Positions 17,771 to 37,655 of a DNA stretch of 64,000 bases are shown here, one piece after another; within the stretch, counting starts at the first letter, position 1; every line of letters begins with the position of its first letter. Origin of the DNA: Minisyncoccota bacterium (GTDB taxonomy: Bacteria; Patescibacteriota; Minisyncoccia; Phycocordibacterales; UBA1006); contig JAJOIF010000004.1 in the NCBI GenBank assembly GCA_021209525.1, positions 35,730 to 99,729 on the forward strand. Reading direction: 5' to 3'. Both the position numbers and the translations under genes were made by a program. The notes under the pieces are model-generated. The model did no database searches. It was not told where the DNA came from and saw only the letters and a program-made list of their open reading frames with translations.

Positions 17771-18025
17771 CACCTCCACTCCTTCTCGCTGCAATAACTC
17801 TTTCTTTGCGTCTTCGCCGCCGCGATTGTAGGCACCTGCTTTTCCTGAACTCAAAATTACGCGATGACATGGAATTGCTGGATCATAATTATTTTTCATA
17901 ATCGTTCCTACTGCGCGCGCAGCTTTGGGGTTTCCTGTGGCGCGTGCTACTTCGCCATAGGTCATGACAGAGCCTGCGGGTATTTTTGATACGACATGGA
18001 GGACTTTTTGGGTGAAGGTGGGCAT
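17768..18025 (-). CDS. MGMT/Ogt-family O6-alkylguanine DNA-binding protein
   Basis: TYGEVA....AARAVG, IPCHRV active-site motif. Confidence 0.92.
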   Translation of the reverse strand: MPTFTQKVLHVVSKIPAGSVMTYGEVARATGNPKAARAVGTIMKNNYDPAIPCHRVILSSGKAGAYNRGGEDAKKELLQREGVEV

Positions 18026-18077
18026 AGTAAATTAGAGAATGGTGATGAATCATGATTTTAACACTATTTCATTCATC

Positions 18078-21000
18078 TCATACACATATCCAAAATTTTG
18101 AGGTTTTTGATTCGATCAAGCCTTCATCATACGGCTCAGGTAGTTCATCATATAAAACATCTTTGATGGTTACTAAAACTTTTGCTCTGCCTTGTTGAGT
18201 TTTTCTCCAATCCAAAACAAATGCTGTTTGCTTTAGTGTTTTAAGTAACTCTTTTGCAACTTTTTTAATTTCCTTGATTTCATTTTCTTTCAAGTCTTCT
18301 TTGTAAAGCAAATCAAAAATCGCAAGCTCTTCTTCGATTAACTCTTCTCTCACTCCTCTTTTTTCCTCATCATTCAAAGATTCAGCAAATTTCATCAAAG
18401 CCTCAAAAAACTCTTCAATATTTTTTGAGCCAGAATTATATTCTGAAAGTAATTTTTCAAATTGCTCTACTAGTTTTTGTCTAGTCGGGTTCAACCTCAC
18501 CAATTCTTCAAGTTTTTCTTTCAAGGACTGCTTCAATTTTTCTGCTTCTTTTCTTTTATTTTTCTCAAAATACTTTCGCAATTTTTCAAAATCAATCTTA
18601 CTCAAATCATATGGTTTGTAATCTTCAGAAATCACATACCCTTCAGCAGTAATCGCATTATCAAGAAGCTCTTCAATAGCATCTGCAACGTCTTCTACAT
18701 TCACATCTTTTCGAGTCAGAATTCGCACCCTCTCTGCTAAAACTCGATACAATTTAACCACATTGAAAAATTCACTCGCGCTTGGGTCTGGCATAATAGC
18801 CCCCAAAAGACTCGTCGCACGATTACTCATCGTCAAAAATTCGTTCTTTGATTCTTCATCGGTCAAAATAGCATCAACTGCATTTTCTATTAAAGCCAAT
18901 TTTTCAAAATCTACTGCTTCACCAATTTGCACAATATTGATTCCATATTCACTACAATATTTATCAAGCTCGCCCAAAACTCCTCGTAATTCATTTACCA
19001 GTTCTGTTTTTGGTTTTATAGGCTTTGCATCTTCATCACCTCGCGCTCCATAAATAGCCAATGCTTTTTTCAGACTTCGAAATACTCCGATATAGTCCAC
19101 AATCAATCCATTTGTTTTTGCGCCCCACACACGGTTTGCACGAGCAATGGTTTGCATCAGAGTATGATTTTTCATTGGCTTGTCCAAATACACCGTCGAA
19201 ATAATCGGAGCATCAAATCCAGTCAGCCACATATTACACACAATCACAATTTTCAAAGGATCATTTACATCTTTAAATTTTTTTTCCAAATCCTCATTGA
19301 TCATTCTTCGGCGATGAGTTTCTATATCAAGCCCAAGCTTTCGGAAATCATCCACTTCGTTTTGAGTCGAACTCATCACCATCGCAATATCAGGACAGTT
19401 TGGCTGCGTTTTCATTTTGTTATACATTTTCACCGCAGTTGGTCGATCTATCGCCACAAACAACGCCTTACCATCATTCCCTTGGCTGTTAAAATGTTCA
19501 ATCACATCACGGGCAATAGTGTTCAATCGTTCTTCTCTCGTGATCAAATGATATTCAGTATTAAATTCTCGTTCAAGCTTTTTCTCTTGATCATCATCAA
19601 GCTCAAAAGTTTCAAGCACTGTTCCCAAATCCTGCCCTAAACTCTCCAAATCAATCTGCAGCTCTGGAATACGGTTATCGTAATACAAAGGCACTGTTGC
19701 CTTGTCATCCACAGACTGCTTAAAATCATAAATACTGACATAATCTCCAAAAGTGCTTTTGGTTTGTTCTTCTTCGCCAGAAATAAGCGGTGTTCCGGTA
19801 AAACCAATAAATGAAGCATTCGGTAAAGCCCGACGCATATTGAGCGCCAAAGTGTCATACTGACTTCTGTGTGCTTCGTCAGTCATCGCGATAATATCGC
19901 TTCGCTCTGAAAGTACAGGAAATTCCGTCTCGCCTTCTTGCAATTGGAATTTGTGAATCAAGGTGAAAATATTGCGATGGTCTTCGGTTAAAAGTTCGCG
20001 AAGTTTTTGCACACTGCTTGCACGTACCATTTCTTCTGGTTCAAGCACTGCACCCACACCGGCAAAATTTGCATAAATCTGCTTGTCGAGTTCCTGCCTG
20101 TCTGTTACCACAAGAAAAGTATAATTCCCTTCATATTTTCGCAAAATCTTTTGAGCGAAAAATACCATAGAATAACTTTTTCCTCCTCCTTGTGTATGCC
20201 AAAAGACCCCAATTCGCCCATTGTTTTCTTCTCGCTTTTCAAAAGATTTAATCGCATTATTTACTCCCAAATACTGATGATTTTTCCCAATCAATTTTAT
20301 CATCCCTTTGTTTGTATCTTGAAACAATACAAAGTTTTCAATAATATCAAGTAAACGCGTTTTGTCGCACATACCACGAAGCAAGGTTTCCAAATCCACC
20401 CTTCCTTTTTCTTCTTCATCACTAATTCTTTTCCAATCAGAAAAATGTTCAAATCCGCTCGTAATAGAACCCATCTTTGCATCAAGTCCGTTTGAAATAA
20501 TCAAAAGCTGGTTATACCAAAACATCTGCGGAATTGTGTCTTTATAGTCTCGAATATTACCATCAAAGGCATCTCGCAAGTTTTTGTGCGCAGCCTTAAG
20601 CTCGATAAACACCAAAGGCAAACCATTCACAAACCCCACCAAGTCCGCTCGGCGTTTATACATATCACCCAAGATCCACATTTGCGATACCAAAGTAAAA
20701 TGATTGTTCTCTGGATTATCAAAATCAATCACACGCACCGTTTCCACATCACGAGTTCCGTCACCGCTCACCACATCCACCTTGACCCCGTTTTTCAAAA
20801 GCTCATAGATTTCTTTATTCGCTTTGACCATACTCATTTTTGAGCGGTCTTTGGTGATTTCTTCTATTGCATCATCAATGGCACTTTTTGCAATGCTTGA
20901 ATTCAATTTCTCCAAAGTAGTCCGAAGACGAGAAACCAAGACAACCTGACCCTGATGTTCTCGCCCAAGCTTTGCATCACCTTCATCAGTATAGGCATTT

Positions 21001-21092
21001 ACAAAATCCATTTCGCCGTCGGTACCCCAAAGCTCCGACAAAAGCCGGATTACGGGTTGCTCTATGAGATTGTCTTCGTTGAAGGGGTTCAT
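18078..21092 (-). CDS. hsdR: Type I restriction endonuclease subunit R
   Basis: ADLVGFVNGLPLVFIELK nuclease, HTQGGGKS, DEAHR, FTGTP, QTIARANR. Confidence 0.97.
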   Translation of the reverse strand: MNPFNEDNLIEQPVIRLLSELWGTDGEMDFVNAYTDEGDAKLGREHQGQVVLVSRLRTTLEKLNSSIAKSAIDDAIEEITKDRSKMSMVKANKEIYELLKNGVKVDVVSGDGTRDVETVRVIDFDNPENNHFTLVSQMWILGDMYKRRADLVGFVNGLPLVFIELKAAHKNLRDAFDGNIRDYKDTIPQMFWYNQLLIISNGLDAKMGSITSGFEHFSDWKRISDEEEKGRVDLETLLRGMCDKTRLLDIIENFVLFQDTNKGMIKLIGKNHQYLGVNNAIKSFEKREENNGRIGVFWHTQGGGKSYSMVFFAQKILRKYEGNYTFLVVTDRQELDKQIYANFAGVGAVLEPEEMVRASSVQKLRELLTEDHRNIFTLIHKFQLQEGETEFPVLSERSDIIAMTDEAHRSQYDTLALNMRRALPNASFIGFTGTPLISGEEEQTKSTFGDYVSIYDFKQSVDDKATVPLYYDNRIPELQIDLESLGQDLGTVLETFELDDDQEKKLEREFNTEYHLITREERLNTIARDVIEHFNSQGNDGKALFVAIDRPTAVKMYNKMKTQPNCPDIAMVMSSTQNEVDDFRKLGLDIETHRRRMINEDLEKKFKDVNDPLKIVIVCNMWLTGFDAPIISTVYLDKPMKNHTLMQTIARANRVWGAKTNGLIVDYIGVFRSLKKALAIYGARGDEDAKPIKPKTELVNELRGVLGELDKYCSEYGINIVQIGEAVDFEKLALIENAVDAILTDEESKNEFLTMSNRATSLLGAIMPDPSASEFFNVVKLYRVLAERVRILTRKDVNVEDVADAIEELLDNAITAEGYVISEDYKPYDLSKIDFEKLRKYFEKNKRKEAEKLKQSLKEKLEELVRLNPTRQKLVEQFEKLLSEYNSGSKNIEEFFEALMKFAESLNDEEKRGVREELIEEELAIFDLLYKEDLKENEIKEIKKVAKELLKTLKQTAFVLDWRKTQQGRAKVLVTIKDVLYDELPEPYDEGLIESKTSKFWICV

Positions 21093-21105
21093 ATTTATAC
21101 TATAA

Positions 21106-22209
21106 TCAATTTATTAAATTATTTAAAGCGTTTTCAGCTCTCTCTATTAAATCATCGTAAGTTAAAACTTCAACCCAATGAAAATAAGAAAGAAGCCTTC
21201 TTAAGTTTTTTGGTTCTGCAGATATAGTTTGAGAAGTACTATTTTTTACCAATTCTTTACCGCGTCTTCCTATAAGTAAAATACCTTTTGGTTTATAGTA
21301 TTTCCCATATCTATCTTCAAGTATTTCGTGACCTGTTTCATCATCTCTTTCATGAGAATATTCACTATAGTAATATTCCATATAACCTGTTAATTGACCA
21401 AGAGATTCTGCTAATTTAGGTGAAATATATTGTCTTTCTCTATCATCAGCTCTTAGTAATTCTTCTGAAGGTAGTTTTACTTCTAAAATATCTGATAATC
21501 CATCTATTCTTAAAAGCCTACCATCAGGATGACCACTAAAACCTGCATCTCTAAAATCTAAATTCTTATATTCAGGACCAAAAATCCATGGATTATTTTT
21601 TAAGAAATTTTGAATATCTGAAACCTCTTTTACGTTTGGATCTTCTATGAGTTTTTTAAATTCTTTTATTTTTTCTTGCTTCTCCTGAATTTTATTTTTT
21701 GTTAAACCTTTTTTTATTAAATCAGGAACATCTAAATCAGAGGTTAAGTAGCCATCTTCAAAAAGTTTTATAAGAGTTTCTTTTCCTTTCTCATCACTAA
21801 CAAGAGTTTTTAATTTTTTATCTAAATCTTCGTCTAGCTCTAAATTATCTTCAAAAGAAAGCTTGCCAGCAGAAACAGAAGAAAGATTTGCAGAAGTAAT
21901 AAATTTCAAAAAATTTGTTAAAGTTATTAAATTTTTTGTATCAAGTCTCACTTCAGAAGCGGGTACAAGTTTACCAGCTTTAATTTCAAATTTTTGTATT
22001 TTTAATTCAACAACTTGGTCCTTCTGACTTATAAAAGTTGCTTTAATTTGAGTTCTACCTGTCTCGTAAATAATCTCCTCTTTGCTCTGAAAATCATCTG
22101 AAACAACAGAGAGTATTTTTCCATTAGGAAAATCCGAAGTATATATTTTATCTTCATGTTTATTTGAAACATAATCTTCTTCTGTCGGATCGTAATTACT
22201 TAAGCCCAT
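21106..22209 (-). CDS. sduA: Shedu-like anti-phage nuclease (DUF4263)
   Basis: QNFLKNNPWIFG, PD...ILEVKLP, LGQLTGY, KPKGILLIGR, VLTYDDLIERA. Confidence 0.85.
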   Translation of the reverse strand: MGLSNYDPTEEDYVSNKHEDKIYTSDFPNGKILSVVSDDFQSKEEIIYETGRTQIKATFISQKDQVVELKIQKFEIKAGKLVPASEVRLDTKNLITLTNFLKFITSANLSSVSAGKLSFEDNLELDEDLDKKLKTLVSDEKGKETLIKLFEDGYLTSDLDVPDLIKKGLTKNKIQEKQEKIKEFKKLIEDPNVKEVSDIQNFLKNNPWIFGPEYKNLDFRDAGFSGHPDGRLLRIDGLSDILEVKLPSEELLRADDRERQYISPKLAESLGQLTGYMEYYYSEYSHERDDETGHEILEDRYGKYYKPKGILLIGRRGKELVKNSTSQTISAEPKNLRRLLSYFHWVEVLTYDDLIERAENALNNLIN

Positions 22210-22213
22210 AATT

Positions 22214-23383
22214 TTATTTCACCTCAACTCTCCCGCCGACTAACTGCGGAATGAGGATGTCTCTTGTTTTTTGTAAATTTTGGTTTTGTTTTTCAAGATT
22301 ATATTTTTCAATCATCATCTCTTTTACATGTTCACCAAATTTTTCACACAAATCCACTGGTGGTAAATAAACTTTTTTTGCTGAAAATTCTGGCCAATGA
22401 CCCTTGTAGTCGTTGAAATAAATTAAATCTTTTGTTGCAAAATGTAACCAAAAAATATTTCTATAATTTTCTTTGCTAGGATAAAACGGCAAGACATTTT
22501 GAATAGCTGAAAACGGAAACATAATCAAATTTTGATAACATGTGTGATTTGCAAAAACAATAACAGGATTTTCTGTACTTGCATTTATACCTGGCTCATC
22601 ATTATGATAACCAATCACACCACTTTTCCCTTGATCTAAAATAGGAACATTTCCAATTGGTAAAGCTGTTTTATTGTCGTATTTTTTACCAACCGAAACT
22701 CTTTCAATCAAATCCTCAACTTTCTTCACCTCCCACCCATTAGGTAATCCATCTTTTACCGGTCTTACAAACCATTCTTTGTAGAGGGTTTGAGCGAGGG
22801 TTTCGAGGGTTTTTATTTTCTTTTGATTCACCTCAATCAAATCATCATACGCCGAAAGCACCTCCGCAATTTTCTTTTGTTCTTTATATTCTGGAACCAA
22901 AAAATCAATAGAAAGCATTTTTTCAAGACTCAAGTTATCTTGAGCAGCACCACTTGAAATAGATTGAAAATCTTTTTTAAACAAATCGAGCAAATATTTT
23001 ACAAATCTTACACCAGAAACATTTTCATAAGACCTAAATCCAACAACACTATCGGGAAAACATGCTGGTATTTTTAGAATAGCACTCTCAGAAATATTCG
23101 CCGCAATTGTAATACAAAGAGTATCAGGTTCCCAAAGTTTACTTTGAGCGAGTCCTTTTTCGTTATATGTTTGGGAATATTCTGAAATATAACAGTTAGC
23201 AGATTTTATATCTGAAGTTTGAATAAAAGGATATTCACCTCCATATAGACTTGAATCATTTCTTGGACGATGACGAGAGCGACCTCTATTTAATTCACCT
23301 AAATCGGTCAACCTCACCCTCTTCCACTCCGCCTTGCGAGTTTTCTCCCCACTATTCTTTTGTGTTGTTTGTGTTTTATTCAT
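22214..23383 (-). CDS. hsdS: Type I RM specificity subunit S
   Basis: Two TRDs with conserved EQKKIAEVLSAYDDLIE and LQKTRDILIPQL helices. Confidence 0.95.
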   Translation of the reverse strand: MNKTQTTQKNSGEKTRKAEWKRVRLTDLGELNRGRSRHRPRNDSSLYGGEYPFIQTSDIKSANCYISEYSQTYNEKGLAQSKLWEPDTLCITIAANISESAILKIPACFPDSVVGFRSYENVSGVRFVKYLLDLFKKDFQSISSGAAQDNLSLEKMLSIDFLVPEYKEQKKIAEVLSAYDDLIEVNQKKIKTLETLAQTLYKEWFVRPVKDGLPNGWEVKKVEDLIERVSVGKKYDNKTALPIGNVPILDQGKSGVIGYHNDEPGINASTENPVIVFANHTCYQNLIMFPFSAIQNVLPFYPSKENYRNIFWLHFATKDLIYFNDYKGHWPEFSAKKVYLPPVDLCEKFGEHVKEMMIEKYNLEKQNQNLQKTRDILIPQLVGGRVEVK

Positions 23384-23455
23384 AAATTCTTGTTTGTGGA
23401 TAACTATTTACATTTTTGACCATTTTTGATATATTGTAAATGTAGGTTTTTCCTA

Positions 23456-24166
23456 CTAATCACGCGGTCCCGCTTTTGCGGGATTTTCGCTTTTTGGCTC
23501 GTAATTTCTTTTTCCTGTATAGAGTCGCCCAAAATCAAAATATTTATCTTTAATTTTATGCAGTTCTTCTGCGACTTGATTTCTCACTCCACAAATCCCA
23601 ATCTTTTTATTTTCAATTTTCAATCTTTGTAAAGGACCCTGCATATCAGAATCCCCAGAAAACAAAATAACTGCAGAAAACTTTTTTGCATCATCTAATA
23701 TGTCCATAGTCATCTCTACATCAAAATTACATTTTGGTTCTTCTATTAAAATACCTGGTTTATGTAATTCGTCTACAAGTTCTTCAATTTTACTTTTTAC
23801 ACCATCATCAAAAAGAGTCATAGTTTTACGCTGAAAAAACATTCCTTCTTTTATTGTCTTGGGAATATACTTCATTGGTTTTGTTTTTAGGATTGCACCA
23901 GTTTTTAAAATTCTTTTATGAAAAGCTTTTGAGTTTTTCAAATCTCTGGTATTTAAACCATAGTAAACTTTTATTTCTTGAATATTTTTATATGTTTTTA
24001 GTTGTTCTATCAAGTCTTCTATTCTAAATTTCCAACCCAAAACATCTTGCCAGTGGAACATATTTGTTAAATCCAAATACACAAAAACCACAGGCTCTTT
24101 TTCTAACCATTCTAGATAGTCTTCTCTTACCATAATTTTATTTTTAATATCCTGTGGTATTTCCAT
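23456..24166 (-). CDS. NYN (LabA/DUF88, PIN-like) domain protein
   Basis: VYLDLTN, KCNFDVEM, LFSGDSD motifs. Confidence 0.9.
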   Translation of the reverse strand: MEIPQDIKNKIMVREDYLEWLEKEPVVFVYLDLTNMFHWQDVLGWKFRIEDLIEQLKTYKNIQEIKVYYGLNTRDLKNSKAFHKRILKTGAILKTKPMKYIPKTIKEGMFFQRKTMTLFDDGVKSKIEELVDELHKPGILIEEPKCNFDVEMTMDILDDAKKFSAVILFSGDSDMQGPLQRLKIENKKIGICGVRNQVAEELHKIKDKYFDFGRLYTGKRNYEPKSENPAKAGPRD

Positions 24167-24167
24167 A

Positions 24168-24272
24168 TTATTTTCTAAAATTAAATTTAAGTAAAATGCC
24201 CAACTTCACCCTTTTCCACTTTGCCTTGCGAGTTTTCTCCCCACTATTCTTTTGTGTCGTTTGTGTAGTCAT
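24168..24272 (-). pseudogene. hsdS 5' fragment (34-aa mini-ORF)
   Basis: MTTQTTQKNSGEKTRKAKWKRVKL matches the HsdS N-terminus MNKTQTTQKNSGEKTRKAEWKRVRL; 35-bp exact repeat 24223-24257 = 23331-23365. Confidence 0.85.
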
Positions 24273-24276
24273 GTAT

Positions 24277-25746
24277 TTATAGTAATAACAAATAATCTAA
24301 AGGAATCTTCACTATACTATCCTCTGATAATTCTAAAGAATCACTACCAAAAACAATTCCATACTTTGCTCGACCTTTTGTTTTTTTCATAGTTGTTTGA
24401 ACTTGGTTTATTTCATTCTTTGAAAAACCAATTTCAAATACAATTTCTGTATTGTCTTTAAATCGAACAATAAAGTCCGCTCCGCCTGACCCATAATCAT
24501 AGTATGCGTCTACTTGTCCATAGAGTTCTTTTGAAAATAGTAAAGCCAAATAATCTTCAAGAATTTTTCCTTTTATATCAACACCTATTACACCACTCAA
24601 AAGACCTATTCTAATATTAGGACTCATAAAGAGGTATTTCCCACTTTTTTTTACTTGCTTATATGGTTGTCCGTATGCTTTTAATTCATAAAGAATTTCA
24701 GCATCAGTGAGAGCGGATAGAATTTTATTCAAAGTTAACGGAGCCAAATCTATTGTTTCCGATAGTTTTTTTATACTTATCTCATCACTATTTGCAAGAA
24801 GAAAAAGTACATTTGGGATTTTTACCAGAGTCTCTGCATTAAAGTCATTAAGCAAAATCAAATCTCTTTGCACAATATTAATCAGAATCATTGCTTTTAT
24901 TCTTTCAAGGGCTTCTGACTCGTTAATCATTTCAGCAGAAAATGGAAAAGAGCCTCTATAAAAATAGTCTTTCTTGAGATCGTTTAAATTTGTAATAGTA
25001 GAAAGTTTTTTAATAATTACTGATTGTAGTTGTTTTATTTTATCAAAAACTTCTTGAGCATTTTTGCTATGAAAAATTGCTCGAGCTAGATTTTTAGATA
25101 AATCTTTCTCTGGAAAGATATCTTTATGTAAAGTTAGATACTCACAAAACTTTGTAGGTAAAACCCTTTCTGTTTTTGACCTTCTCACCAAATCTTTGTT
25201 TTTTTGATTAAGGAAAATTGCAGAAGATCCTGTTGCAATAACAAGAATATTTTTGTTTCCTTTTGTTTTATCAAAAAGTAATTTTAAGAACAAATCCCAC
25301 TTTGGATCGTATTGAATTTCATCAATAAGTAAAAGAATTTTCTTTTTATTCTGCAATAAATTTCCCCAAACATTTTTTTCTAAATAATCAATGAATTCAC
25401 CCAAAGAAATATCTTCAGAAAGCAAACGGTCAACAGAAATATAAATCCTTTCATCTACCGTAGTGTTAATATCTTTAGATAAATGGTTTACTGGTTTATT
25501 TATTTCAAAAAAATATAATTGAGATAACAAGGTTGTTTTACCAACACCACGAATACCTGGTAGAATAATTATTTTTTCCTCTTCGGGTAATTCTCCTGAT
25601 ATAAGTTTATTTACATATTTTTGTAACATTAAATAAGAGGAACGAGTTTTTCTCTTTTTCCCTTCAGGTGTTTGAAAGTAGCTTTTTAGATATTGATCTA
25701 AATTTGACTTCCATTCGATATAGAATTTTTCAATATTTTTGTTCAT
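24277..25746 (-). CDS. AAA+ ATPase (AAA_14/DUF4143-like) with C-terminal nuclease-like motif
   Basis: GIRGVGKT, LLIDEIQ, ATGSS, ADFIV......FEI. Confidence 0.85.
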   Translation of the reverse strand: MNKNIEKFYIEWKSNLDQYLKSYFQTPEGKKRKTRSSYLMLQKYVNKLISGELPEEEKIIILPGIRGVGKTTLLSQLYFFEINKPVNHLSKDINTTVDERIYISVDRLLSEDISLGEFIDYLEKNVWGNLLQNKKKILLLIDEIQYDPKWDLFLKLLFDKTKGNKNILVIATGSSAIFLNQKNKDLVRRSKTERVLPTKFCEYLTLHKDIFPEKDLSKNLARAIFHSKNAQEVFDKIKQLQSVIIKKLSTITNLNDLKKDYFYRGSFPFSAEMINESEALERIKAMILINIVQRDLILLNDFNAETLVKIPNVLFLLANSDEISIKKLSETIDLAPLTLNKILSALTDAEILYELKAYGQPYKQVKKSGKYLFMSPNIRIGLLSGVIGVDIKGKILEDYLALLFSKELYGQVDAYYDYGSGGADFIVRFKDNTEIVFEIGFSKNEINQVQTTMKKTKGRAKYGIVFGSDSLELSEDSIVKIPLDYLLLL

Positions 25747-25979
25747 ATTACAATATAATCATATCACATTTCTGATTATATCCTAGTGTTTTCAAAAAGT
25801 AAATACCCTTTATATCCTTATTTTAAAGAGTTTTTAACACATTTCTGATATTGAGTTTTTGGCATTTCACTTTTTATATGATTTCGTATAAAAAGTGAAA
25901 TACCAAAAATGTGTATAATTATACATAAACTATACACATTTTATACATATTCTGATTTTGAATTGTAAAATAAGGCTTT

Positions 25980-27497
25980 TTACAGTATTTTCTTCAGATT
26001 TTCTTTGATTTTCTTTTCTAAAACCGCTGATTCTTTAAACAGATTCTCTAGGTCATTTGAAAGATTTTTGACTTTTTCTTGGAAATCCTCTTCTGATTCT
26101 TCTATTACTTCAGTACCCACATATCGCCCTGGGTTGAGCGAATATCCAGCTTCAGCAACTTCTTGCAATGTTGCAACCTTACACAGTCCTTTTACATCTT
26201 CGTATTTCCCTGCCCCGCTTTCGCCACGATACGCACGAACAATATTTGCAATTTGATCTATTTGCTCTGGAGTGAATTCTCTATGTGCTCGATCAATTTG
26301 TCGGTAAATATTTCTTGCATCAATAAAAAGAATTTTATCTTTTCTATTAGAATTTATTTTTCCTTTATCAAAAAACCAAAGTGTACAAGAAAGAGTTACG
26401 GTATAGAAAAAATTTCCACCAATCGCAACCATCACATCTACCACACCTGACTCGATCAACTTTTTTCTAATTTCAAGTTCTGTTCCTCGTGCGTCACTCG
26501 CAGAATTTGCCATAACAAATCCTGCGCGTCCGTTTTTGTTTAAGCTTTCATAAAAATGCTCAATCCACAGATAGTTTGCATTGTCCACTGTTGGAATACC
26601 AAGTCTATATCTTTTATCTTCTCGTACTTTTTCCTTGTCTACACCACTGACATTAAACGGAGGATTTGCCATGACAAAATCAAATTGCCCCACACTTTCA
26701 TGCAAATCTTCATAAAAAGTATTTCCTTGTTTTATTTGCCCTTCGAGTCCGTGTACTGCAAGGTTCATTTTACACAAATCGGCACTTATTTCTGATTTTT
26801 CTTGTCCATAAATTGAAATAATATTTTGAGTGCTGTTTTTGTGTTTTTTTACAAATTCCGCGCTCTGTACAAACATGCCACCTGATCCACATGCAGGGTC
26901 ATAGACTTTTCCTTGGTACGGTTCGAGGATTTCTACAATCAATTTTACAAGTGAAGTCGGAGTAAAGAACTCTCCTCCACCCTGACCTTCTGCCATAGCA
27001 AAACTTGAAAGGAAATATTCATAAATTTTTCCAAAAACATCACCTTCTACATCCATCGGGATTTCACTAAAAGTTTTAAGAAGTCCAATCAAAATATGAT
27101 TTTCAAGTTTGTTGTATGTTTTTGGTAATACGCTTTTGAGGTTGGGATTATATTCCTCAATTTCTTTCATCGCATCATTGATTGCTTTTCCTATATTTAC
27201 ACCTTCTTTAAGATTGAGTAAATATGAAAAGCGAGCGATTTCAGGAATATACATAATTCCTTTTGCTTGATATTCTTCAGGACCGATCTTTCTCTCGCGA
27301 ACCAGAGAAGCTCCTGTTTTTTTAGTATTCTTCAGTTCATTATCCGCGTGTTCAAATTTAAATTCAGCAAATCTCAAGAAAATAAGCCCTAGAACTGGTT
27401 GAGAATATTGATGAACGGTAAGACCAGAATTTGCTCGCAATGAGTTTGCAGCATCCCACAATCGCTCTTCTAATTTTTTAAGACTTTCTTTTGCCAT
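25980..27497 (-). CDS. hsdM: Type I RM methyltransferase subunit M
   Basis: [37 protein letters not shown]. Confidence 0.97.
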
Positions 27498-27506
27498 ATT
27501 GTTATA

Positions 27507-28151
27507 TTAAAGCATTTTTTCACTTTTTATACTAGTAAAACCTTTTGCTGTAATAACCAAATGATCTTGCACTTGTACGCCCAATAATTCCCCCGCCTTT
27601 ACGAGTCTTTTAGTTACTTCAACATCCTCTATCGAAGGTTCCAATGATCCAGAGGGGTGATTATGAGTAATAATAATACTCGAAGCATGTAATCGTAAAG
27701 CTGGTTCAAAAACTTCTCGTGGGTGCACTAAGGATGCGTCGAGAATTCCGACGGAAACAATGATTCGTTCAATTAATCGACTTTGTGTGTCTAAATAAAA
27801 AACCACTAGATGTTCTTTTTTGGAATCTTTAATGTCAGAACACAACAGCCAAACATCTTTTGGGGATAGTATTTCTACTTGATCATTTTGAGTAAAGCGT
27901 TTTCCTAATTCAATAACTGCAAGTATTTGTAATGATTTCACCTTACCTAATCCTTTAATATCTAAAAAATCATTCAAGGAAATATCTTGGACTCCTTTCT
28001 TTTGAATTACCCGGAGCGCTTTACGAGAAATTTCAAGCACATTAATCCCTTGAATTCCTGAGCTAAGCAAAATAGCAAGCAGCTCATAATCTTGCATTTT
28101 TCGTGTTCCATATTTTTCTAATTTTTCACGAGGTAAATATTTTTCATACAT
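27507..28151 (-). CDS. radC: RadC/JAB (UPF0758) protein
   Basis: PREKL, ELLAILL, VHPREVF, HNHPSG..PS.ED, DH. Confidence 0.95.
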   Translation of the reverse strand: MYEKYLPREKLEKYGTRKMQDYELLAILLSSGIQGINVLEISRKALRVIQKKGVQDISLNDFLDIKGLGKVKSLQILAVIELGKRFTQNDQVEILSPKDVWLLCSDIKDSKKEHLVVFYLDTQSRLIERIIVSVGILDASLVHPREVFEPALRLHASSIIITHNHPSGSLEPSIEDVEVTKRLVKAGELLGVQVQDHLVITAKGFTSIKSEKML

Positions 28152-28255
28152 ATTTAAATATATTAAAATAATCATGCTCAATAGCTTATTAAATATAATA
28201 TAATCTACTTCATATAAAAATAAAAACAGCCCCTTCCAGAACTGTTTCTTTACCC

Positions 28256-29168: not shown

Positions 29169-29768
29169 TTACTGTAACTTTTTAACTTCAAAAGAGCCTG
29201 TATTATTACGATCTCTACCTGAGTAATATTCTGTTTGAAGCACTCCTTCATCTTCTAGCTTTGCAGATGCTGATCCCTCATGTATATGCATACTTTCAGG
29301 TGCATTATCTTTTGGTTTGTTTCTGTATTGATAATGTATTCTAGCCGTCCCGAATTCATCGACATTCATTGACGCTTCAAAACTGAAAGATTCTGATGTC
29401 TCTGTTTCCAGATAGATAAGTAGATGAGTCCATGTTTGTTTAATACAAAATTTCTTTATCTGTATTGGACCGTTGGCATGATTTGAATGAGATGTTATGG
29501 TTCCAGACCAATTTCCGTCTATGATAGGAGTTTTTATACTAGCAATTTTGCGAATAAAATTATTTCTCCACAAATTAGTTTCGAACCACTTATGTAAAAT
29601 TCCATAAAATCCAATTACCGAAGGAGCTTCTATCCACCACGGTAAGGGAAAGATGTTTTTTGAAAATAGATATAATCCCCATGCAAGCAATATCGATATT
29701 ACTGCAAGATAAAGCGACACATACTTGTGTTCTTCTGAGTTTATTGAATATGGATGTATGTTTTGCAT
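29169..29768 (-). CDS. cap15: CBASS membrane effector, Cap15 (2TM + beta-barrel)
   Basis: Two N-terminal TM helices, P.IDGNWSG, IKQTW..L.I.LET..SES.S, Y.Y.N.P, H.G, YYSGR...G. Confidence 0.88.
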   Translation of the reverse strand: MQNIHPYSINSEEHKYVSLYLAVISILLAWGLYLFSKNIFPLPWWIEAPSVIGFYGILHKWFETNLWRNNFIRKIASIKTPIIDGNWSGTITSHSNHANGPIQIKKFCIKQTWTHLLIYLETETSESFSFEASMNVDEFGTARIHYQYRNKPKDNAPESMHIHEGSASAKLEDEGVLQTEYYSGRDRNNTGSFEVKKLQ

Positions 29769-29770
29769 AG

Positions 29771-30694
29771 TTATTTATTCCAATTATCCCAAAGTTCCAC
29801 AAAAGCACTAATAGTTTTTACTGCATCATCTTGGTTCCACTGCTCCTCACTTTCACCAAATAATTCATGAAAATGGTTTTGACACATACATTGACCAAGA
29901 GCTAATGCAGACCAGAGATGTTTTAATACTGCGTGTACGGTTGTAGAATGATCACCAGTAAAGTGCTCATCAGGGACATTGTAAATTAATGACTGTAAGA
30001 AATATGAAGGCGCTACACCATCGGTAAGTTTACCTGTATCAACAAGATGATTTCTCATATTTTTGAAAATTCGCACTGTTGGCTTAAAACGCCCGCCTGT
30101 ACGAGTATCTGAATTTTTATCAACTCCATTTTGATAGTGGTGCTCTGGATAATTTATGATTCCACGATTTGTTGTGCGATGATAGAATTTAACACCCTCT
30201 TCCGCATTATGACTATTAGTACCATAGAAATAATCATATTTTCGATAATTTATAACAGGAACAATGTCGGCCTTTAGTCTTCCTGAAGAAGGTTTGAGTT
30301 TAATTGACTTATTACCACTTGTATCAACGGAAAGTAATCCATAATATTTAGTCAGAGCAGAAATGACATCTCTGCGTAAATCTTGCCAATCATAAACAGC
30401 ACTACCATATGCCTGATCATGAGCATTTTTCTGATCATAAGGAAGTTCGTGTGCATTATGACCAAATGTAGTTGTTAACTCGACAACTACATCCACATCA
30501 CTATCTGCTCGAATATTTGTATCGTTTTTATATGATCCCTGGAGATAGATTTTTACCGAACCATTACTGATACGATCTTTAAGTGGTGACTGATCATGTG
30601 TCAGTGCTGTTCGAATAGATTCATGAGTTGCTTTTGCTGAAACAGTAGCACCTTGATTCGACCATGTTGTTAGTTGAGAGAGTGGAATTGCCAT
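29771..30694 (-). CDS. cdnE: CBASS CD-NTase (cGAS/DncV-like), CdnE-like
   Basis: YLQGSYKNDTNIRADSDVDVVV, ADIVP, IINYP, FKPTVRIFK, PSYFLQSLIYNVP. Confidence 0.9.
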   Translation of the reverse strand: MAIPLSQLTTWSNQGATVSAKATHESIRTALTHDQSPLKDRISNGSVKIYLQGSYKNDTNIRADSDVDVVVELTTTFGHNAHELPYDQKNAHDQAYGSAVYDWQDLRRDVISALTKYYGLLSVDTSGNKSIKLKPSSGRLKADIVPVINYRKYDYFYGTNSHNAEEGVKFYHRTTNRGIINYPEHHYQNGVDKNSDTRTGGRFKPTVRIFKNMRNHLVDTGKLTDGVAPSYFLQSLIYNVPDEHFTGDHSTTVHAVLKHLWSALALGQCMCQNHFHELFGESEEQWNQDDAVKTISAFVELWDNWNK

Positions 30695-30695
30695 A

Positions 30696-31607
30696 TCATT
30701 TAAATAGATTATCGATTTCAGCCGACCAATTATCGCTATGTATTATCCTATCTTTTTGATAGTTATTTTTAAGTATTTCTGCTTTGGTCATTTGAGAAAG
30801 CACCTCCCAATCAGTACCTAACACGTAAGTAGCATTACCATAATGCAAACTTTCAAGTAAATAAATACTTTTATCTTTATATCCAAACACAAGATACCCA
30901 GTAAAACCTCCCAACCCTATCGCTATTTGATCAGGCTTGTAAGATTCAATTTTTTTGAACCTGTCAGCTATCATTGCTTTTTCTCCAACAGATCTTTTTT
31001 CAATAATTTCTTTTACTCTTTCGTTAACCTTACTCCAGGGATTTATTCCAGGAGGTAGTAACTCCCAGTTGAGTCTAATAATTTTAGTTTTGACTGGTAG
31101 AGTCAAATTTTCTTTAAAAATCTGAAACTCATCAAATATTTCAAAAAACAAATTCATTGCATGCTTAATATCAGCATATTCACTTTTTACTTTTTTAAAT
31201 TTCTTTGAAATAACTATTTTCTTTGCATCATTTTCAGCAATTTGAAACTCCAAACTAGGAGGAGGGACTAGTTCTCTTTGCCATCTTTCATATGGCATGT
31301 AATTTACACCACTATGTTCATAGCCGCCCCAATCAGTTAATGTCCATTCTCTAGGATAATAAACTGTCTCTTTTGGTAGATCTTTTCTAGGATTTTCTTT
31401 ACCTTCTGCATTAAACTCTGAAACATTTCCAAATATCGCAGGAAGAACAGTCTCACCCACATTGAGATTATTAGAGAAACCTATCTTTTTAAGTAAATCA
31501 AATAAATTATCATTAATCTCAATACCGACATAAAAATTCTCATTCTCTTTTATTAAGGAGAGGTATTTTTCAGGATTAATTACTCTTTTGTGTCTTTTCT
31601 TTGCCAT
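30696..31607 (-). CDS. Uncharacterised soluble protein (303 aa) in the CBASS operon
   Basis: Long ORF coupled to lexA (3-bp gap) and to the CD-NTase (1-bp gap); no named domain recognised. Confidence 0.85.
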   Translation of the reverse strand: MAKKRHKRVINPEKYLSLIKENENFYVGIEINDNLFDLLKKIGFSNNLNVGETVLPAIFGNVSEFNAEGKENPRKDLPKETVYYPREWTLTDWGGYEHSGVNYMPYERWQRELVPPPSLEFQIAENDAKKIVISKKFKKVKSEYADIKHAMNLFFEIFDEFQIFKENLTLPVKTKIIRLNWELLPPGINPWSKVNERVKEIIEKRSVGEKAMIADRFKKIESYKPDQIAIGLGGFTGYLVFGYKDKSIYLLESLHYGNATYVLGTDWEVLSQMTKAEILKNNYQKDRIIHSDNWSAEIDNLFK

Positions 31608-31610
31608 AAT

Positions 31611-32228
31611 TTAGTATAGATCACCAGGAAGTACAGCAACGACTACTCCTTGTATGATGCAGTTATCTGTTAATATAATCGGCTTATGGTCTTTGTTTGT
31701 TGATTTCGGTTGAAGTACAACAGCACCATTCGCTTTCTTGAACACCTTGACGGTTGCTTCGTCATTTATAAGGGCAACAACCTTTTCATTATCTTCCGCT
31801 GTATCCTGTTGTCGAATCAAAAGCAGATCTCCACTATTAATTCCTGCAAGATTCATCGAGTCACCCATAGCACGCAATAGAAAATATTTTGAACCCTTTT
31901 TAGCTAGCCCTGTTGATACAGGAATCATGGCTTGAATATTTTCTTCAGCTAGTACTGGTGAGCCACAAGTTACAGCACCAACCAAAGGAACATCAACTGT
32001 GCTTATTGAAGCTGTTGTCTGCGATCCAGTAAGGATAAGCTGTCGTCCGATTTTCTTTATTAGACCAGCCTCGATAAGTCGATTAACAACAAGGCTCGCA
32101 GATCGTGGAGATTTACCGCCTGTAACCTCATTAATCTCATCGAGAGTAGGGCTTTTGCCATAATGAACAATCTTGTTACGGATAAGGGCAAATGCTTTTT
32201 TGTCTTTGTCGCTAAGGTTATTTGTCAT
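31611..32228 (-). CDS. lexA: LexA/CI-like repressor (wHTH + S24 peptidase)
   Basis: SPTLDEI HTH, VPLVGAVTCG cleavage site, GDSM Ser, ATVK Lys. Confidence 0.9.
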   Translation of the reverse strand: MTNNLSDKDKKAFALIRNKIVHYGKSPTLDEINEVTGGKSPRSASLVVNRLIEAGLIKKIGRQLILTGSQTTASISTVDVPLVGAVTCGSPVLAEENIQAMIPVSTGLAKKGSKYFLLRAMGDSMNLAGINSGDLLLIRQQDTAEDNEKVVALINDEATVKVFKKANGAVVLQPKSTNKDHKPIILTDNCIIQGVVVAVLPGDLY

Positions 32229-32270
32229 AGTATAAATAGTATAAATTATACTATACAAAAAAGCAAGTAT
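32229..32270 (-). promoter_or_regulatory. Promoter with overlapping palindromic operator
   Basis: Minus strand TTGCTT-17-TATACT; palindrome ATAGTATA-aat-TATACTAT at 32236-32254. Confidence 0.6.
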
Positions 32271-32286
32271 TTGCTATGATATTCTT

Positions 32287-32919
32287 ATGGAAAATGACCA
32301 GAAAAAACCAATGACTGTCGGTGAACTGGTAGCAAAGATACACTCTCCTGTTTTAAGCGAGGGGCAGATTTCTCAATTTCGAGAGATTGGTAAAAGACAT
32401 GCGGAAATGATTGAAAATATCAGAAAAGTTGCACAACCTATTATTGAACAAATGAATCGTGTTCGCGAACAAACAAAGCTTTTTGAACCAGTAGAATATC
32501 CAGCAATAGTATATCGTCGCCCCGTTGAATATGACATCCTGGAAGAACTACAAGAATTAAATAAAAACCACAAACGTCTTCTGTCTTCAAGCGAAGATAG
32601 TAATATAATCATCTACGACACAAGTAATGGGTCGCTCGACAGACATTTGGGTGGCAAACTATTTTCATACGATCTCACTGAAAATGGAAAAAGAAAGAAA
32701 TTACTTGAAACATTACTGAATCGAGATGCTTATGTACAAACAAAAGACTTACAAAGAATACTCTCTTGCCCATCATCGCAGGCAGTAGCAAAAATAGTTC
32801 AAACTTTTAATGACTATGCGATAAACACACTAAGACTACCAAAGAAGACAAAACTCATTCAAGGAAAGAAAGGTTCTGGATATCGTATTAATCCTAAAAT
32901 ACACATAGAGAAAGAGTAA
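32287..32919 (+). CDS. Putative DNA-binding protein with C-terminal winged helix
   Basis: Divergent from lexA; C-terminal LIQGKKGSGYRIN wing motif. Confidence 0.65.
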   Translation: MENDQKKPMTVGELVAKIHSPVLSEGQISQFREIGKRHAEMIENIRKVAQPIIEQMNRVREQTKLFEPVEYPAIVYRRPVEYDILEELQELNKNHKRLLSSSEDSNIIIYDTSNGSLDRHLGGKLFSYDLTENGKRKKLLETLLNRDAYVQTKDLQRILSCPSSQAVAKIVQTFNDYAINTLRLPKKTKLIQGKKGSGYRINPKIHIEKE

Positions 32920-33093
32920 ATTCCTAAGTTGACACCAAGTTGAGTGGATAACTTTGAAAAATCGCCTTTAAATAGGCGTTTTTTCTTTATGTTACTCAAT
33001 TTTGTGGTGATTACATGACTATGTACCTTTTTGATTTCATAGAGTTAGTAGATTAGTCATCTACAAATTTATAAGTAATTAAATAAAAACTCT

Positions 33094-34371
33094 ATGAATA
33101 AAAAACCTTCATGGAAAACAGGAGTTAGAGAAGTCAAAGATTTACTCCCTTGGAAAGAAAATCCAAGAAAAATCTCACGGGTCGCTATGGAAAAATTAAA
33201 AGAGAAAATCATTCAAAGTGGTTTTCATAGTGTAATTGTTATTGATACAGACAATACGATTATTTCAGGTAATCAAAGAAAAACTGCTTTGATACAGCTC
33301 GGTATTAAACAAGTAAATGTACTGATTCCTGATCGTAAATTGTCTGACGAAGAACGTCGCAAGATTGCGATCGAAAGCAATGTCAACGACGGTGAGTGGG
33401 ATTTCGAAAAGCTTAAGTCTTTTGACCTTGAGCTTTTACAGTTCGCTGGATTCAACGAAAAAGAATTAGTTAAGTTTTGGGACGAAGAAAAGGATACCAA
33501 AGATGACAAATTCGATGTCGATAAAGAGTTAAAGAAAATAAAAACACCGCAAACAAAGCCGGGTGATCTTATCATCATGGGTGGTCATAAGTTGCTATGT
33601 GCTAGCTCAACCGACATGAATGCTGTCACTAAGCTATTCGGAAATGATAAAGCCACGGCTATCTATAATGATCCACCTTTTAATATCGGGCTTTCATACG
33701 ACAAAGGTGTTGGTAATAAATCTAACTACGGAGGTACGTTTGACGACAATCAATCACCTGAAGAATATAAAGAATTTATTCGCAAGGTTCTAAAATCTTC
33801 ACTAACCGTATCTACCAAAGATGTACACGTCGCTTTCTGGTGTGATGAAGCCTGGGTGTGGGTTTTTCAAACGCTCTATATGGAAAATGGAGTTAAGAAC
33901 CGAAGACTTAATGTCTGGGTTAAAAACAATTCATCACCGACACCAACTGTTGCGTTCAATAAGTGTCTTGAGTATTGCGTGTATGGCACAAAAGGATCTC
34001 CATATATTTCAGATCTCGTAAAAAATCTCAACGAAGTACAAAACAAAGACTATGGAACTGGTAACCAACTTCTTGAAGACATCTCAAATATCTGGGCAAC
34101 AAAACGACTACCTTCAAATCAAATGGAACATGCGACGAGTAAAAATCCTGAATTACACCATAAGTTTATTATGCGTTGCACTAAGCCAGGAGACATCATT
34201 TTTGATGCCTTCTCTGGATCTGCTAGCACCATGATCTGTGCAGAACAACTGGGTCGAAAGGTCTATTCCCTAGAGATAGAGCCTGTGTTTTGCGATTTGG
34301 CGATTCGTCGTTATGAAAAATTAACTGGTCATAAGGCACAAGTAATTAAGAACTTCTATGAAAAAGAATAA
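33094..34371 (+). CDS. ParB-like N-terminal domain + N6A/N4C DNA methyltransferase
   Basis: NPRKI..IISGNQR ParB-N; DPPF and FDAFSGSAST MTase motifs; H.T.K. Confidence 0.92.
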   Translation: MNKKPSWKTGVREVKDLLPWKENPRKISRVAMEKLKEKIIQSGFHSVIVIDTDNTIISGNQRKTALIQLGIKQVNVLIPDRKLSDEERRKIAIESNVNDGEWDFEKLKSFDLELLQFAGFNEKELVKFWDEEKDTKDDKFDVDKELKKIKTPQTKPGDLIIMGGHKLLCASSTDMNAVTKLFGNDKATAIYNDPPFNIGLSYDKGVGNKSNYGGTFDDNQSPEEYKEFIRKVLKSSLTVSTKDVHVAFWCDEAWVWVFQTLYMENGVKNRRLNVWVKNNSSPTPTVAFNKCLEYCVYGTKGSPYISDLVKNLNEVQNKDYGTGNQLLEDISNIWATKRLPSNQMEHATSKNPELHHKFIMRCTKPGDIIFDAFSGSASTMICAEQLGRKVYSLEIEPVFCDLAIRRYEKLTGHKAQVIKNFYEKE

Positions 34372-34765
34372 ATTTCAAGATCAGTTTCTTGATGAGCTAC
34401 GGAAAGTGCCAATCATTCAGGTTGCTTGCGAGAAATCAGGACTATCTCGTCAAAGTGTCTATCGGTGGAGAAAGGAAGATAAAGAATTTCTCAAGAAAAT
34501 GGATAGTGCACTTTCTGAAGGTGTCGCCTTGGTAAATGACATGAGTGAAAGTCAATTACTTACGCTCATCAAAGAGAAAAACTATCCTGCAATTAGTTTT
34601 TGGCTCCGTCACCGAAATGATAATTACAAAAACAAGCTTGAGATTACTACTAAAGATGATAACGAGGAACTAACACCGTCACAAGCGAAAATTGTAAAGC
34701 AGGCGCTCAAACTCGCAAAAATTACTAAGTCGAAATCTATTAAAAATATTAATCGTAAAAAATAA
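34358..34765 (+). CDS. HTH protein, probable terminase small subunit
   Basis: ACEKSGLSRQSVYRWRKED HTH and AISFWL motif; immediately upstream of TerL. Confidence 0.72.
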   Translation: MKKNKFQDQFLDELRKVPIIQVACEKSGLSRQSVYRWRKEDKEFLKKMDSALSEGVALVNDMSESQLLTLIKEKNYPAISFWLRHRNDNYKNKLEITTKDDNEELTPSQAKIVKQALKLAKITKSKSIKNINRKK

Positions 34766-34767
34766 TT

Positions 34768-36264
34768 ATGACTAAAATAATTCCCAAAGCACTGGTGAAT
34801 ACGATGATAAAAGATCGTTCAGTGCGAACATCAATTACCAAGGATAGTTTTCTGTATTTCTTCCATTTTTACTATGCACACTATGTAAAGTATGAGACAG
34901 CAGATTTTCAAAAAGAGATTATTCATAATCTCGAAAAAAGTACCACAGAAAATCTGTATGTAGTAGCATTTCGTGGATCAGGAAAATCGACCATGGTTAC
35001 AACAGCATACCCAATTTGGGCAATCCTCGGAAAACAACAAAAGAAGTTTTGTATTATCTTTTGTCAGACACGAGCACAAGCAAAGCAACATATGATGAAT
35101 ATCCGTACTGAACTTGAGGGTAATGACGTTCTTAAAAAAGACCTTGGACCTTTTCAAGAAGAAAGTGACGAATGGGGCTCATTCTCTCTTGTATTCAAAA
35201 AGCACGGAGCAAGAATTACTGTAGCTTCTGCCGAGCAAAGTATTCGTGGAATTCGTCATAATGAACACCGTCCTGATCTCATCATCTGCGATGACGTTGA
35301 AGATGTTCAATCTACTAAAACTCGTGAGGGTCGAGAAAAGACATATAACTGGCTCCGTGGCGAGGTTGTACCTGCTGGCGATAGAAATACACGCTTAATC
35401 ATAGTCGGAAACTTACTCCACGAAGATTCGTTGTTAATGCGTATTAAAGACGAAATTGCAAAAGGTAAGGCGAAAGGAATTTTCAAAGAGTATCCGTTGA
35501 TTGATAAGAATGGTGTTTGTTTATGGTCTGGGAAATATGCAACAGAAAGAGATCTTGAGGATGAGAAGTTAAAAGTTGCCAGTGAAATATCGTGGCAACG
35601 AGAATATTTACTCCGTATTATTCCAAGCGATGATCAAGTTATCTATCCAGAATGGATTCAGTTTTATGACGAACTGCCAGGAGAAAAACATCGTGGCTAT
35701 CGTGGTACCTATGCAGGAGTAGATCTTGCGATTTCAGCTTCAGAAACAGCTGATGACACAGCTGTGGTATTTGCCCACATTTATTCACGCCGTGAGAAAT
35801 TACGAATTTATATACTACCTAACCCTATTGCAAAGAAACTTAACTTTCCTGCACAGGTGGATCTTATGAAAGATATTCGCAACACTTTGCTCACAAGAAG
35901 CTCTGACGAGTTGTTTGTTGAGAGTGTTGCATATCAAGAAGCCCTACCACAAATGCTTGAACATCATGGTGTTAAGGCTACAGCAATAAAACCTAAGGGT
36001 GACAAAAGAACACGACTTGCTCTTACTTCAACTGCAATAAAATCAGCAAAAATTTTATTCCCAAGACAAGGGTGTGAAAGACTTATCGAGCAACTTGTTG
36101 GATTTGGAGTAGAAAAGCATGACGACTTAGCGGATGCATTTTCTCTCTTAATTAACTCAACTATGGATAAACATTCAGGAGAATCTACATGGCTTATGTA
36201 CTGGATGGGAGATGATGAACCTTTGTATTTTAGGGATTATGTAGATATGGGTCAAAAAAAGTAG
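34768..36264 (+). CDS. Terminase large subunit
   Basis: Walker A FRGSGKST, Walker B IICDDVED, nuclease GVDLA and HDDLADA. Confidence 0.9.
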   Translation: MTKIIPKALVNTMIKDRSVRTSITKDSFLYFFHFYYAHYVKYETADFQKEIIHNLEKSTTENLYVVAFRGSGKSTMVTTAYPIWAILGKQQKKFCIIFCQTRAQAKQHMMNIRTELEGNDVLKKDLGPFQEESDEWGSFSLVFKKHGARITVASAEQSIRGIRHNEHRPDLIICDDVEDVQSTKTREGREKTYNWLRGEVVPAGDRNTRLIIVGNLLHEDSLLMRIKDEIAKGKAKGIFKEYPLIDKNGVCLWSGKYATERDLEDEKLKVASEISWQREYLLRIIPSDDQVIYPEWIQFYDELPGEKHRGYRGTYAGVDLAISASETADDTAVVFAHIYSRREKLRIYILPNPIAKKLNFPAQVDLMKDIRNTLLTRSSDELFVESVAYQEALPQMLEHHGVKATAIKPKGDKRTRLALTSTAIKSAKILFPRQGCERLIEQLVGFGVEKHDDLADAFSLLINSTMDKHSGESTWLMYWMGDDEPLYFRDYVDMGQKK

Positions 36265-36336
36265 TCGCGAGTATGCAATATTTCGCTAGTTCTGCATAGA
36301 CTTAGCAAAACGCTCAAATTGCGTCATCAATATAAT

Positions 36337-37655
36337 ATGGAGACGCAATATATAAGTAATTTAGGGGTAAGGACAGAAGTACCAAAACCAAGATTCGGTA
36401 TGTCCTGTATGCTCGAAAATCAACCGAATCAGACGAAAAGCAAGCCTTATCTATTGAATCACAGGTTAAGGAAATGCTTGCCATAGCCGACCGTGACGGC
36501 TTAACAGTTGTTGATATTAGGCGTGAATCTCATTCAGCTAAAGAATCCGGTCAACGACCAGTATTTAGAGAGGTATTAGAGGATGTAAGACGTGGTAGAT
36601 ATAACGGAATACTCACATGGGCACCAGATCGTCTATCAAGAAACGCTGGCGACCTAGGATCAGTGGTTGACCTTATGGACGAGACAAAACTTCTTGAAAT
36701 AAGAACATATGGACAGCATTTTAAAAATTCTCCCAATGAGAAGTTTCTTTTGATGATCCTGTGTTCCCAAGCAAAGCTCGAAAACGATAACAAAAGTATA
36801 AATGTAAAACGAGGACTGCGAACAAGGTGTGAAATGGGATTGCGACCTGGACCTGCTGTAGTCGGATATCTTAATGAAAAGAGAATGGATAAAAAGTGCG
36901 AAGTGGTTATAGATCCTGAACGAGCACCGATAGTTAAACAAATGTTTGAAAAAGTAGCTTATGAAAAATGGTCAGGAAGAAAGCTCTATCACTGGCTTAA
37001 GTTTGATCTTAATTTCAAAACTCGTAGTGGCAACAAAGGTCTTACCCTTAGCAATATTTATCTCATACTTCAAAATCCATTCTATTATGGAGTTTTTGAG
37101 TATCCACGAAAAAGTGGAAATTTCTATACTGGAAGACACAAGCCAATAATCAATAAGGAGCTTTTTGAATTAGTCCAAGAGCAGGTAAAAAGCCAAGTTT
37201 TAAGGACCCAAGAACCAAAAGAGTTTGCTTTTACAAAAATGATGACTTGCGGGCTTTGTGGCTCAGGAATATGTGCTGATGAAAAGTTTAAAAAGTTAAA
37301 AGATGGGTCAGTAAACAGGCATATCTATTATGGATGTACTAGATCTAAAGATAAAAATTGTAAGTGTGGGTATATAAACGAGATTGAATTAATACAGCAA
37401 TTTGAAAAGTTGATTGATCAAGTAAATATCAACGAGATTGGGATGAAAGAGAAAATCAAATATGAAGTTGAGCGAATAAAACGCTTTAATCAATCTGTAT
37501 TAAATACAAAACAGCAGATACAAATAAAAGACGTAGACATCAGAGACTACGCCAAATTTATTTTGAAAGACGGTTTGATTGAGGAGAAACGAGAATTACT
37601 AACTTGTTTTAAGAGTAAGATTTTCCTAAAAGAGAAAAGAATTTTCCTCGACTAG
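36337..37655 (+). CDS. Large serine recombinase with Zn ribbon; frameshift near the 5' end
   Basis: YVLYARKS catalytic motif is in frame upstream of 36474, DRLSRN, C..CG...YYGC; ATG at 36337 is in a different frame. Confidence 0.88.

Follow-up and report, generated by a model that had tools for sequence, protein, structure and literature searches.

A gene behind a LexA-type repressor on a Patescibacteria island is very probably a member of the Rhea family of single-gene anti-phage systems

Rhea (pUCCL617_141) is a validated single-gene anti-phage system from lactococci that encodes a protein of 303 amino acids (Grafakou et al. 2024, PMC11381338). The available sections of that report give no InterPro or HHpred domain for Rhea, describe a C terminus that resembles TnsE (5D17, Z 6.2), and count 611 HMMER matches in other organisms, already remarking on the wide distribution. 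Rhea is described there as an Abi-like system that works after DNA injection and protects against skunaviruses and TP901-1, and a review table lists replication, transcription, and translation as unaffected (PMC13064643). All 14 Rhea escapers, obtained from four phages, carried mutations in TerL (T58A, S108I, A132G, H204Q/N, and G233V), and 3 of the 14 also had the E101K change in TerS; the mutations fall in the ATPase domain, and both the nuclease domain and the HNH gene are free of them in the parts of the study that describe them (PMC12184496). In the same parts, sk1 TerL was tested as a trigger of Rhea and is absent from the six triggers given; thus, the terminase alone does not turn on Rhea toxicity. 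Rhea is said to be missing from PADLOC and DefenseFinder (PMC13335696), the accessible text of PMC13586616 makes no mention of it, and the literature that we covered, which was mostly open access, held no paper on the mechanism of Rhea and no study of homologues outside the lactic acid bacteria. The terminase ATPase domain is also implicated in phage recognition by Avs2, which binds it (PMC11564622), a functional parallel only: unlike Avs2, a Rhea-type protein lacks a STAND ATPase, a repeat sensor, and any recognisable effector, and coexpression of the terminase fails to trigger Rhea toxicity.

The window, by which we mean the whole stretch of 64,000 nucleotides that was analysed, encodes a soluble protein of 303 residues with two predicted domains on the reverse strand at 30696..31607. 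The gene begins with an ATG 3 nt downstream of the stop of a lexA-like gene, and its own stop lies 1 nt ahead of the ATG of a CD-NTase gene, giving the order lexA-like gene (31611-32258), 303-aa gene, CD-NTase (29771-30694), and Cap15 (29169-29768), with gaps of 3, 1, and 2 nt. No membrane segment was found in the protein, whose highest 19-residue Kyte-Doolittle mean was 0.75. These open reading frame coordinates and hydropathy values confirm what a sequence-only reading of this DNA had described, namely, a soluble 303-aa protein with no transmembrane segment and a stop 1 bp from the cyclase start. The five motifs that it had picked out (NWELLPPG, G..GF.GY.VF, ES..YGNATY, W..LS..TKAE, and RIIH...W) were found at residues 180, 233, 252, 267, and 287 and are conserved in the family. 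Fourteen residues (W181, P185, G187, G231, G234, Y238, E252, N258, A259, W267, K275, R287, H290, and W294) were invariant among 121 family sequences and 94 to 99% conserved among 148 cluster representatives, and the five motifs could not be tied to a catalytic site. Searches of the protein against Pfam, PADLOC, and PDB sequences gave no match (0 families at E up to 1 for Pfam and PADLOC), NCBIfam returned a single row at chance level (E 0.17), and a search of the ESM Atlas gave no usable match. When 150 family members were compared with NCBIfam, one of them matched, to an unrelated transposase model. RNA run X16 was set aside as expression evidence, since the gene was covered by contigs only, which does not show transcription.

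The plasmid matches included WP_011669131.1, a 303-aa homologue on plasmid 5 of Lactococcus cremoris SK11. At both ends of the SK11 gene, the outermost 20 nt correspond exactly to the gene-specific part of the respective Rhea cloning primer (0 of 200 shuffles each), and WP_011669131.1 is likely a Rhea allele, a link made through the primers, the length, and the fold and not through the deposited pUCCL617_141 sequence. The window protein aligned with WP_011669131.1 over its full length, with 115 of 302 residues identical (38%; E 2e-67), and a family HMM built without WP_011669131.1 scored that protein at E 5e-86. Additionally, the family has 29 columns with at least 90% conservation, and 28 of these are kept by the window protein and 27 by WP_011669131.1. 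We discarded the A1-A2 profile match as support because the two alignments have members in common and the comparison is circular. Taken on its open reading frame, sequence comparison, and predicted fold, we are highly confident that the 303-aa gene belongs to the Rhea family: both are single genes of 303 aa with no library domain, a TnsE-like C-terminal domain, and full-length homology. The idea of a stand-alone defence gene, raised in the sequence-only reading, is thus supported by homology to a tested single-gene anti-phage system, and, judged from sequence, a defence function of the window copy is very likely. WP_011669131.1 sits on a long branch in an unresolved fork of a quick family tree, and, with an identity of 38%, the target specificity of the window protein may therefore differ. 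The settings of the genes differ as well. In the accessible text, Rhea is not colocalised with a known system (PMC11381338), while the SK11 copy instead sits after a restriction-modification gene; the window copy, unlike Rhea, is part of an island integrated in the small genome of a Patescibacteria host, where a LexA-type repressor precedes it and CBASS follows.

The AlphaFold2 model of the window protein (pLDDT 88, pTM 0.55) shows two domains joined by a low-confidence linker. The predicted N-terminal alpha/beta domain (approximately residues 6 to 170; 31098..31592, reverse strand) includes a long beta-hairpin (residues 70 to 114; 31266..31400, reverse strand; pLDDT about 96), which carries a conserved W-x4-W-x-G tip (W88, W93, and G95) in the model and the family alignment. 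The C-terminal domain (residues 179 to 303; 30699..31073, reverse strand) holds most of the invariant residues and has a predicted fold like those of TnsE-C, ZorC-C, and VCH_CASS14 (Z 5.8-8.3). Since Z values under 8 are common in VIA-align, for which whole-protein models were the queries, the fold scores given here are middling. The C-terminal domain matched the integron cassette protein VCH_CASS14 (Z 8.3, rmsd 3.2, 103 aligned), ZorC (Z 5.9), and TnsE 5D16 (Z 5.8, rmsd 3.1, 102 aligned), the last being a middling score tied with other folds, and the N-terminal domain weakly matched the UvrB-binding domain of UvrA (3FPN; Z 6.1, rmsd 3.8, 91 aligned). The model of WP_011669131.1 (pLDDT 86, pTM 0.77) has the same order of elements and recovered the same set of folds (Z 5.1-6.5), including TnsE 5D16 (Z 5.2, rmsd 3.9). 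These model-based scores reproduce the published TnsE likeness and assign no function. Foldseek with the window model found nothing in PDB or BFVD at E up to 0.001; its top PDB rows, the stems of pore-forming toxins, were rejected because they aligned through the hairpin (TM about 0.1). Among SAVED, TIR, HORMA, E1/E2, JAB, and nuclease folds, none was prominent, and the rows obtained were weak UEV/E2-like and VRR-NUC ones (Z 3.7-5.1).

In a word search, 413 of 1,105 candidates scored, and clustering at 50% gave 1,564 representatives at E up to 0.001, of which 282 reached E up to 1e-30. The top matches were almost all full length, at about 300 to 320 aa, and longer fused forms numbered 0 among the 7,999 scored candidates, a count that is weak evidence. 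Among 109 genome loci, the best 80 represent a wide range of bacterial phyla, plus a single Bathyarchaeota record, and homologues were carried on 21 plasmids, 1 INPHARED phage record, and 22 IMG/VR contigs. Within the phylum of the window host, 5 of 400 sampled genomes had a homologue, one of them as a weak partial match (L097), which was removed from the independent sample together with L093, identical to L020. The family is a patchy, mobile accessory gene. The cargo of Enterobacteriaceae prophages includes homologues (L025, L033, L048, L079, L181-L185, and L194-L195), and in one group of these prophages the homologue directly follows PD-Lambda-1. For the gene neighbourhoods, 892 open reading frames were called in the 80 loci and 458 neighbours were chosen, of which the nearest 294 (within about 2.5 kb) were scanned in PADLOC with one representative for most repeated clusters, leaving 164 more distant genes outside the scan; grouping the loci at 70% identity gave 61 homologue groups. 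With regulators and matches judged to be generic removed, a defence-type neighbour was present in 31 of the 61 groups, which is a raw count with no background set.

The operon is headed by a LexA-type S24 repressor (31611..32258, reverse strand; likely start ATG at 32228), which was identified by LexA/S24 profile matches. This LexA carries a Cys-Gly site and Ser/Lys motifs, and RecA is present in the host genome. With the motifs kept and RecA present, we infer that the operon would be induced by DNA damage. Of 53 groups, 17 had a LexA/S24 or CapP/M78 gene within 2 kb upstream of the homologue, compared with 2 of 52 for the downstream side, although the profiles were derived from the same loci, which tilts the comparison toward the upstream count. 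In a separate check, CapH-like and CapP-like genes were found upstream in all three new loci of the phylum (L094-L096). CapH and CapP are described as inducing defence operons upon DNA damage (bioRxiv 10.1101/2022.04.27.489752), and many homologues resemble those operons in having this damage-type switch upstream and DUF2188 nearby; the window copy differs in using a co-oriented, self-cleaving LexA/S24 repressor, by which it would presumably be regulated. DUF2188 adjoins the homologue in 14 loci from 7 groups. The arrangement of regulator, DUF2188, and Rhea-type gene (L020/L093, L013, L015, L023, L029, L047, and the L064 group) resembles a CapH/CapP system given as 'DUF2188 + hypothetical protein' in the available part of the same preprint (bioRxiv 10.1101/2022.04.27.489752). 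Just ahead of lexA, a 9-1-9 inverted repeat (32236..32254) is a weak operator candidate (16 of 1,000 shuffles) that is imperfect in L001 and L084. TATAC-type repeats (window 32227-32254; L087:3080-3130) lie ahead of where lexA starts in the window and in L001, L084, and L087; by sequence, they are a candidate operator of this LexA clade. No E. coli-type SOS box was found, and promoter-like sites were at chance level.

We mapped the Rhea escape sites onto the sk1 TerL sequence. S108 directly follows the Walker A motif GRGSGKS, A132 lies in the following strand, H204 is part of the Walker B motif DEVH, and G233 is part of TSGG, while T58 has no adjacent motif. H204 is a histidine in 31 of 31 distant terminases, and A132 is mostly conserved there. 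Four of the five escape sites lie beside ATP-pocket motifs, which makes the packaging motor the likely target. In the explanation that we favour, DNA damage would lift the LexA-type repressor, and the 303-aa gene would be induced together with the cargo behind it. The Rhea-type protein would then act alone, late in infection, on the assembled or running phage DNA-packaging motor (the large terminase ATPase), preferably through direct contact at the ATP-pocket face, so that few progeny would come from the infected cell. Taken as a whole, a stand-alone Rhea homologue aimed at the packaging motor is a likely explanation. By analogy with Rhea, the window copy may well act at packaging, whereas direct contact with the terminase is a more tentative proposal. 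Escape sites at residues of the motor core could act through the speed of the motor and not through a binding surface.

The last point also matters for a related explanation, in which a stand-alone Rhea-type defence would sense DNA: the C-terminal domain would bind ends or packaging intermediates made by the terminase and would trigger a hidden toxicity, with E252, K275, R287, and H290 as the candidate toxic site and with escape mutations that slow the motor. The folds that neighbour the C-terminal domain include those of TnsE, ZorC, MotA-C, and YjbR. These proteins bind DNA. Sensing of DNA intermediates was suggested by the authors who described Rhea (PMC11381338), the invariant polar residues cluster in the sequence of the C-terminal domain, and the failure of terminase alone to act as a trigger is consistent with such a sensor. 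However, the C-terminal domain is near neutral (net charge 0 in the window protein, family median +2), no nuclease or toxin fold was prominent, and the escape mutations lie in the ATPase domain and spare the nuclease domain and the HNH gene. Overall, we consider DNA sensing, the chief alternative, rather unlikely. A role as phage sensor, as proposed in the sequence-only reading, is plausible.

The gene lies on an island (approximately 28863-37638) that is common to other samples. The island core (32287..37655) comprises a divergent, unannotated 210-aa gene with a weak C-terminal HTH, about 87% conserved on the island (32287-32919), a ParB-methyltransferase (33094-34371), a TerS-like HTH protein (34358-34765), a TerL-like ATPase (34768-36264), and a serine recombinase (36474-37655, reverse strand). 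No att-like direct repeat appeared among the 20 largest repeat families listed, and there is no tRNA beside the island. An unannotated 130-aa open reading frame is found at 28256-28648, and an adjacent defence block on the reverse strand (17421..28181) encodes a PemK/MazF-like toxin, HsdR, HsdS, HsdM, Shedu, an NYN protein, a PDC-S01-like ATPase, and RadC. In this block, the type I restriction-modification operon (18078-27497) is interleaved with the genes for Shedu, the NYN protein, and the PDC-S01-like ATPase; the end of HsdR, which has an atypical tail, lies 14 nt past the Shedu stop. An 87-nt direct repeat (23288-23374 and 24180-24266, 85% identical) lies on either side of the NYN gene and copies the beginning of hsdS; it is possibly an insertion scar within the type I locus. 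Packaging genes on the island bring in a second function that the protein might serve, island maintenance, in which it would block the motor of a helper phage so that the island's own TerS and TerL fill the capsids. Interference with helper packaging has a model in Ppi of the PICIs. The lexA and 303-aa genes travel with TerS/TerL in L001, L084, and L087, related TerS or TerL genes are found near homologues in L037 and L041, and the island TerL differs in type from that of sk1 (DDVE and GNLLH versus DEVH and TSGG). On the other hand, most homologues have no island-like terminase gene nearby in the fetched DNA, the 303-aa gene is replaceable on the island (X8 contig), and no helper phage is known. 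Thus, we regard island maintenance as improbable.

Two genes downstream of the 303-aa gene make up a two-gene CBASS: a CdnE-like CD-NTase (29771..30694, reverse strand; PADLOC PDLC00788, E 1e-106) and the 2TM beta-barrel effector Cap15 (29169..29768, reverse strand; Pfam Cap15). The 303-aa gene, which matches no PADLOC model, is exchanged independently of this pair. The sequence-only reading had suggested that the protein could be a sensor, cyclase regulator, or second effector dedicated to this CBASS, and the 1-nt gap to the cyclase, the order lexA, 303-aa gene, and CBASS in L001, L086, and run X7, and a second lineage (L035/L040) with a different cyclase and NucC directly downstream of the homologue would fit such a partnership. 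However, within the scanned neighbours, a cyclase lies beside the homologue in only 2 of the 61 groups (L001 and L035/L040). The metagenome locus L084 has the same island (homologue 93%, TerL 98.6%, and LexA 94% identical) with other genes instead of CBASS; its DNA identity with the window ends at 30700 and restarts at 29186, two positions that bound the CBASS pair, and a quick tree places L084 as sister to the CBASS-bearing L001. Homologues at L085 (79%) and L087 (71%) also have other genes downstream and no CBASS, and at L088, the last of five metagenome loci, the match is partial and lies at the end of a contig. Conversely, one metagenomic contig of run X8, record 21 (88% likeness), has 236 other letters between 30695 and 31610, an arrangement with lexA and the cyclase but not the 303-aa gene. 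Among the 400 genomes of the phylum, 3 have a close cyclase and 5 a homologue, with an overlap of 0, and Rhea acts alone. The CBASS genes are thus swappable neighbours and probably not partners, and a dedicated role in CBASS is highly improbable. DS-2 was rejected as an explanation: the match of the cyclase to DS-2 was below the cut-off, and the third gene of DS-2 is described as a diadenylate cyclase (PMC13092281) and so does not explain the 303-aa gene.

Other genes were seen in the same slot. The X8 insert is about the size of DUF2188 genes (240 nt in L087). A 752-aa membrane protein takes the place of CBASS behind the Rhea-type gene in L084:4921-7179 and L085:1491-1871; it gave weak DUF2254 and S_4TM rows and no confident family and is a candidate defence gene. 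In L087:4941-7550, the slot holds a 439-aa Cys-x2-Cys protein and further unannotated genes with no Pfam or PADLOC match, and the N terminus encoded at L094:2901-3533 is related to the 439-aa protein. A non-defence accessory role, for example in repair of DNA damage, would suit the N-terminal likeness to UvrA (Z 5.1-6.1 over both models), the LexA or CapP/IrrE regulators upstream, and the homologues found among housekeeping genes in L006/L007, but with a homologue, Rhea, tested as anti-phage and a patchy family (5 of 400 phylum genomes) carried on plasmids and viral contigs, we consider it very doubtful.

Rhea and its wide distribution have already been published (PMC11381338); new here are the assignment of this clade to the Rhea family, the swaps in both directions of the 303-aa gene and its CBASS neighbours, the pattern of regulators, and the placement of the escape sites. 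A false lead toward a new CBASS component is removed as well. A more far-reaching idea, which we consider improbable, is that Rhea proteins are widespread, damage-inducible blockers that act directly on the motor by plugging the terminase ATP pocket, possibly with the hairpin, and that on Patescibacteria terminase islands they would also silence the helper terminase while the divergent island terminase packages island DNA. The invariant residues, the hairpin, the escape sites by the terminase ATP pocket, and the frequent DNA damage switches upstream offer handles on the mechanism of Rhea. Since Pfam, PADLOC, and NCBIfam miss the family, many genes annotated as 'hypothetical' in defence islands, plasmids, and prophages are candidate Rhea systems.
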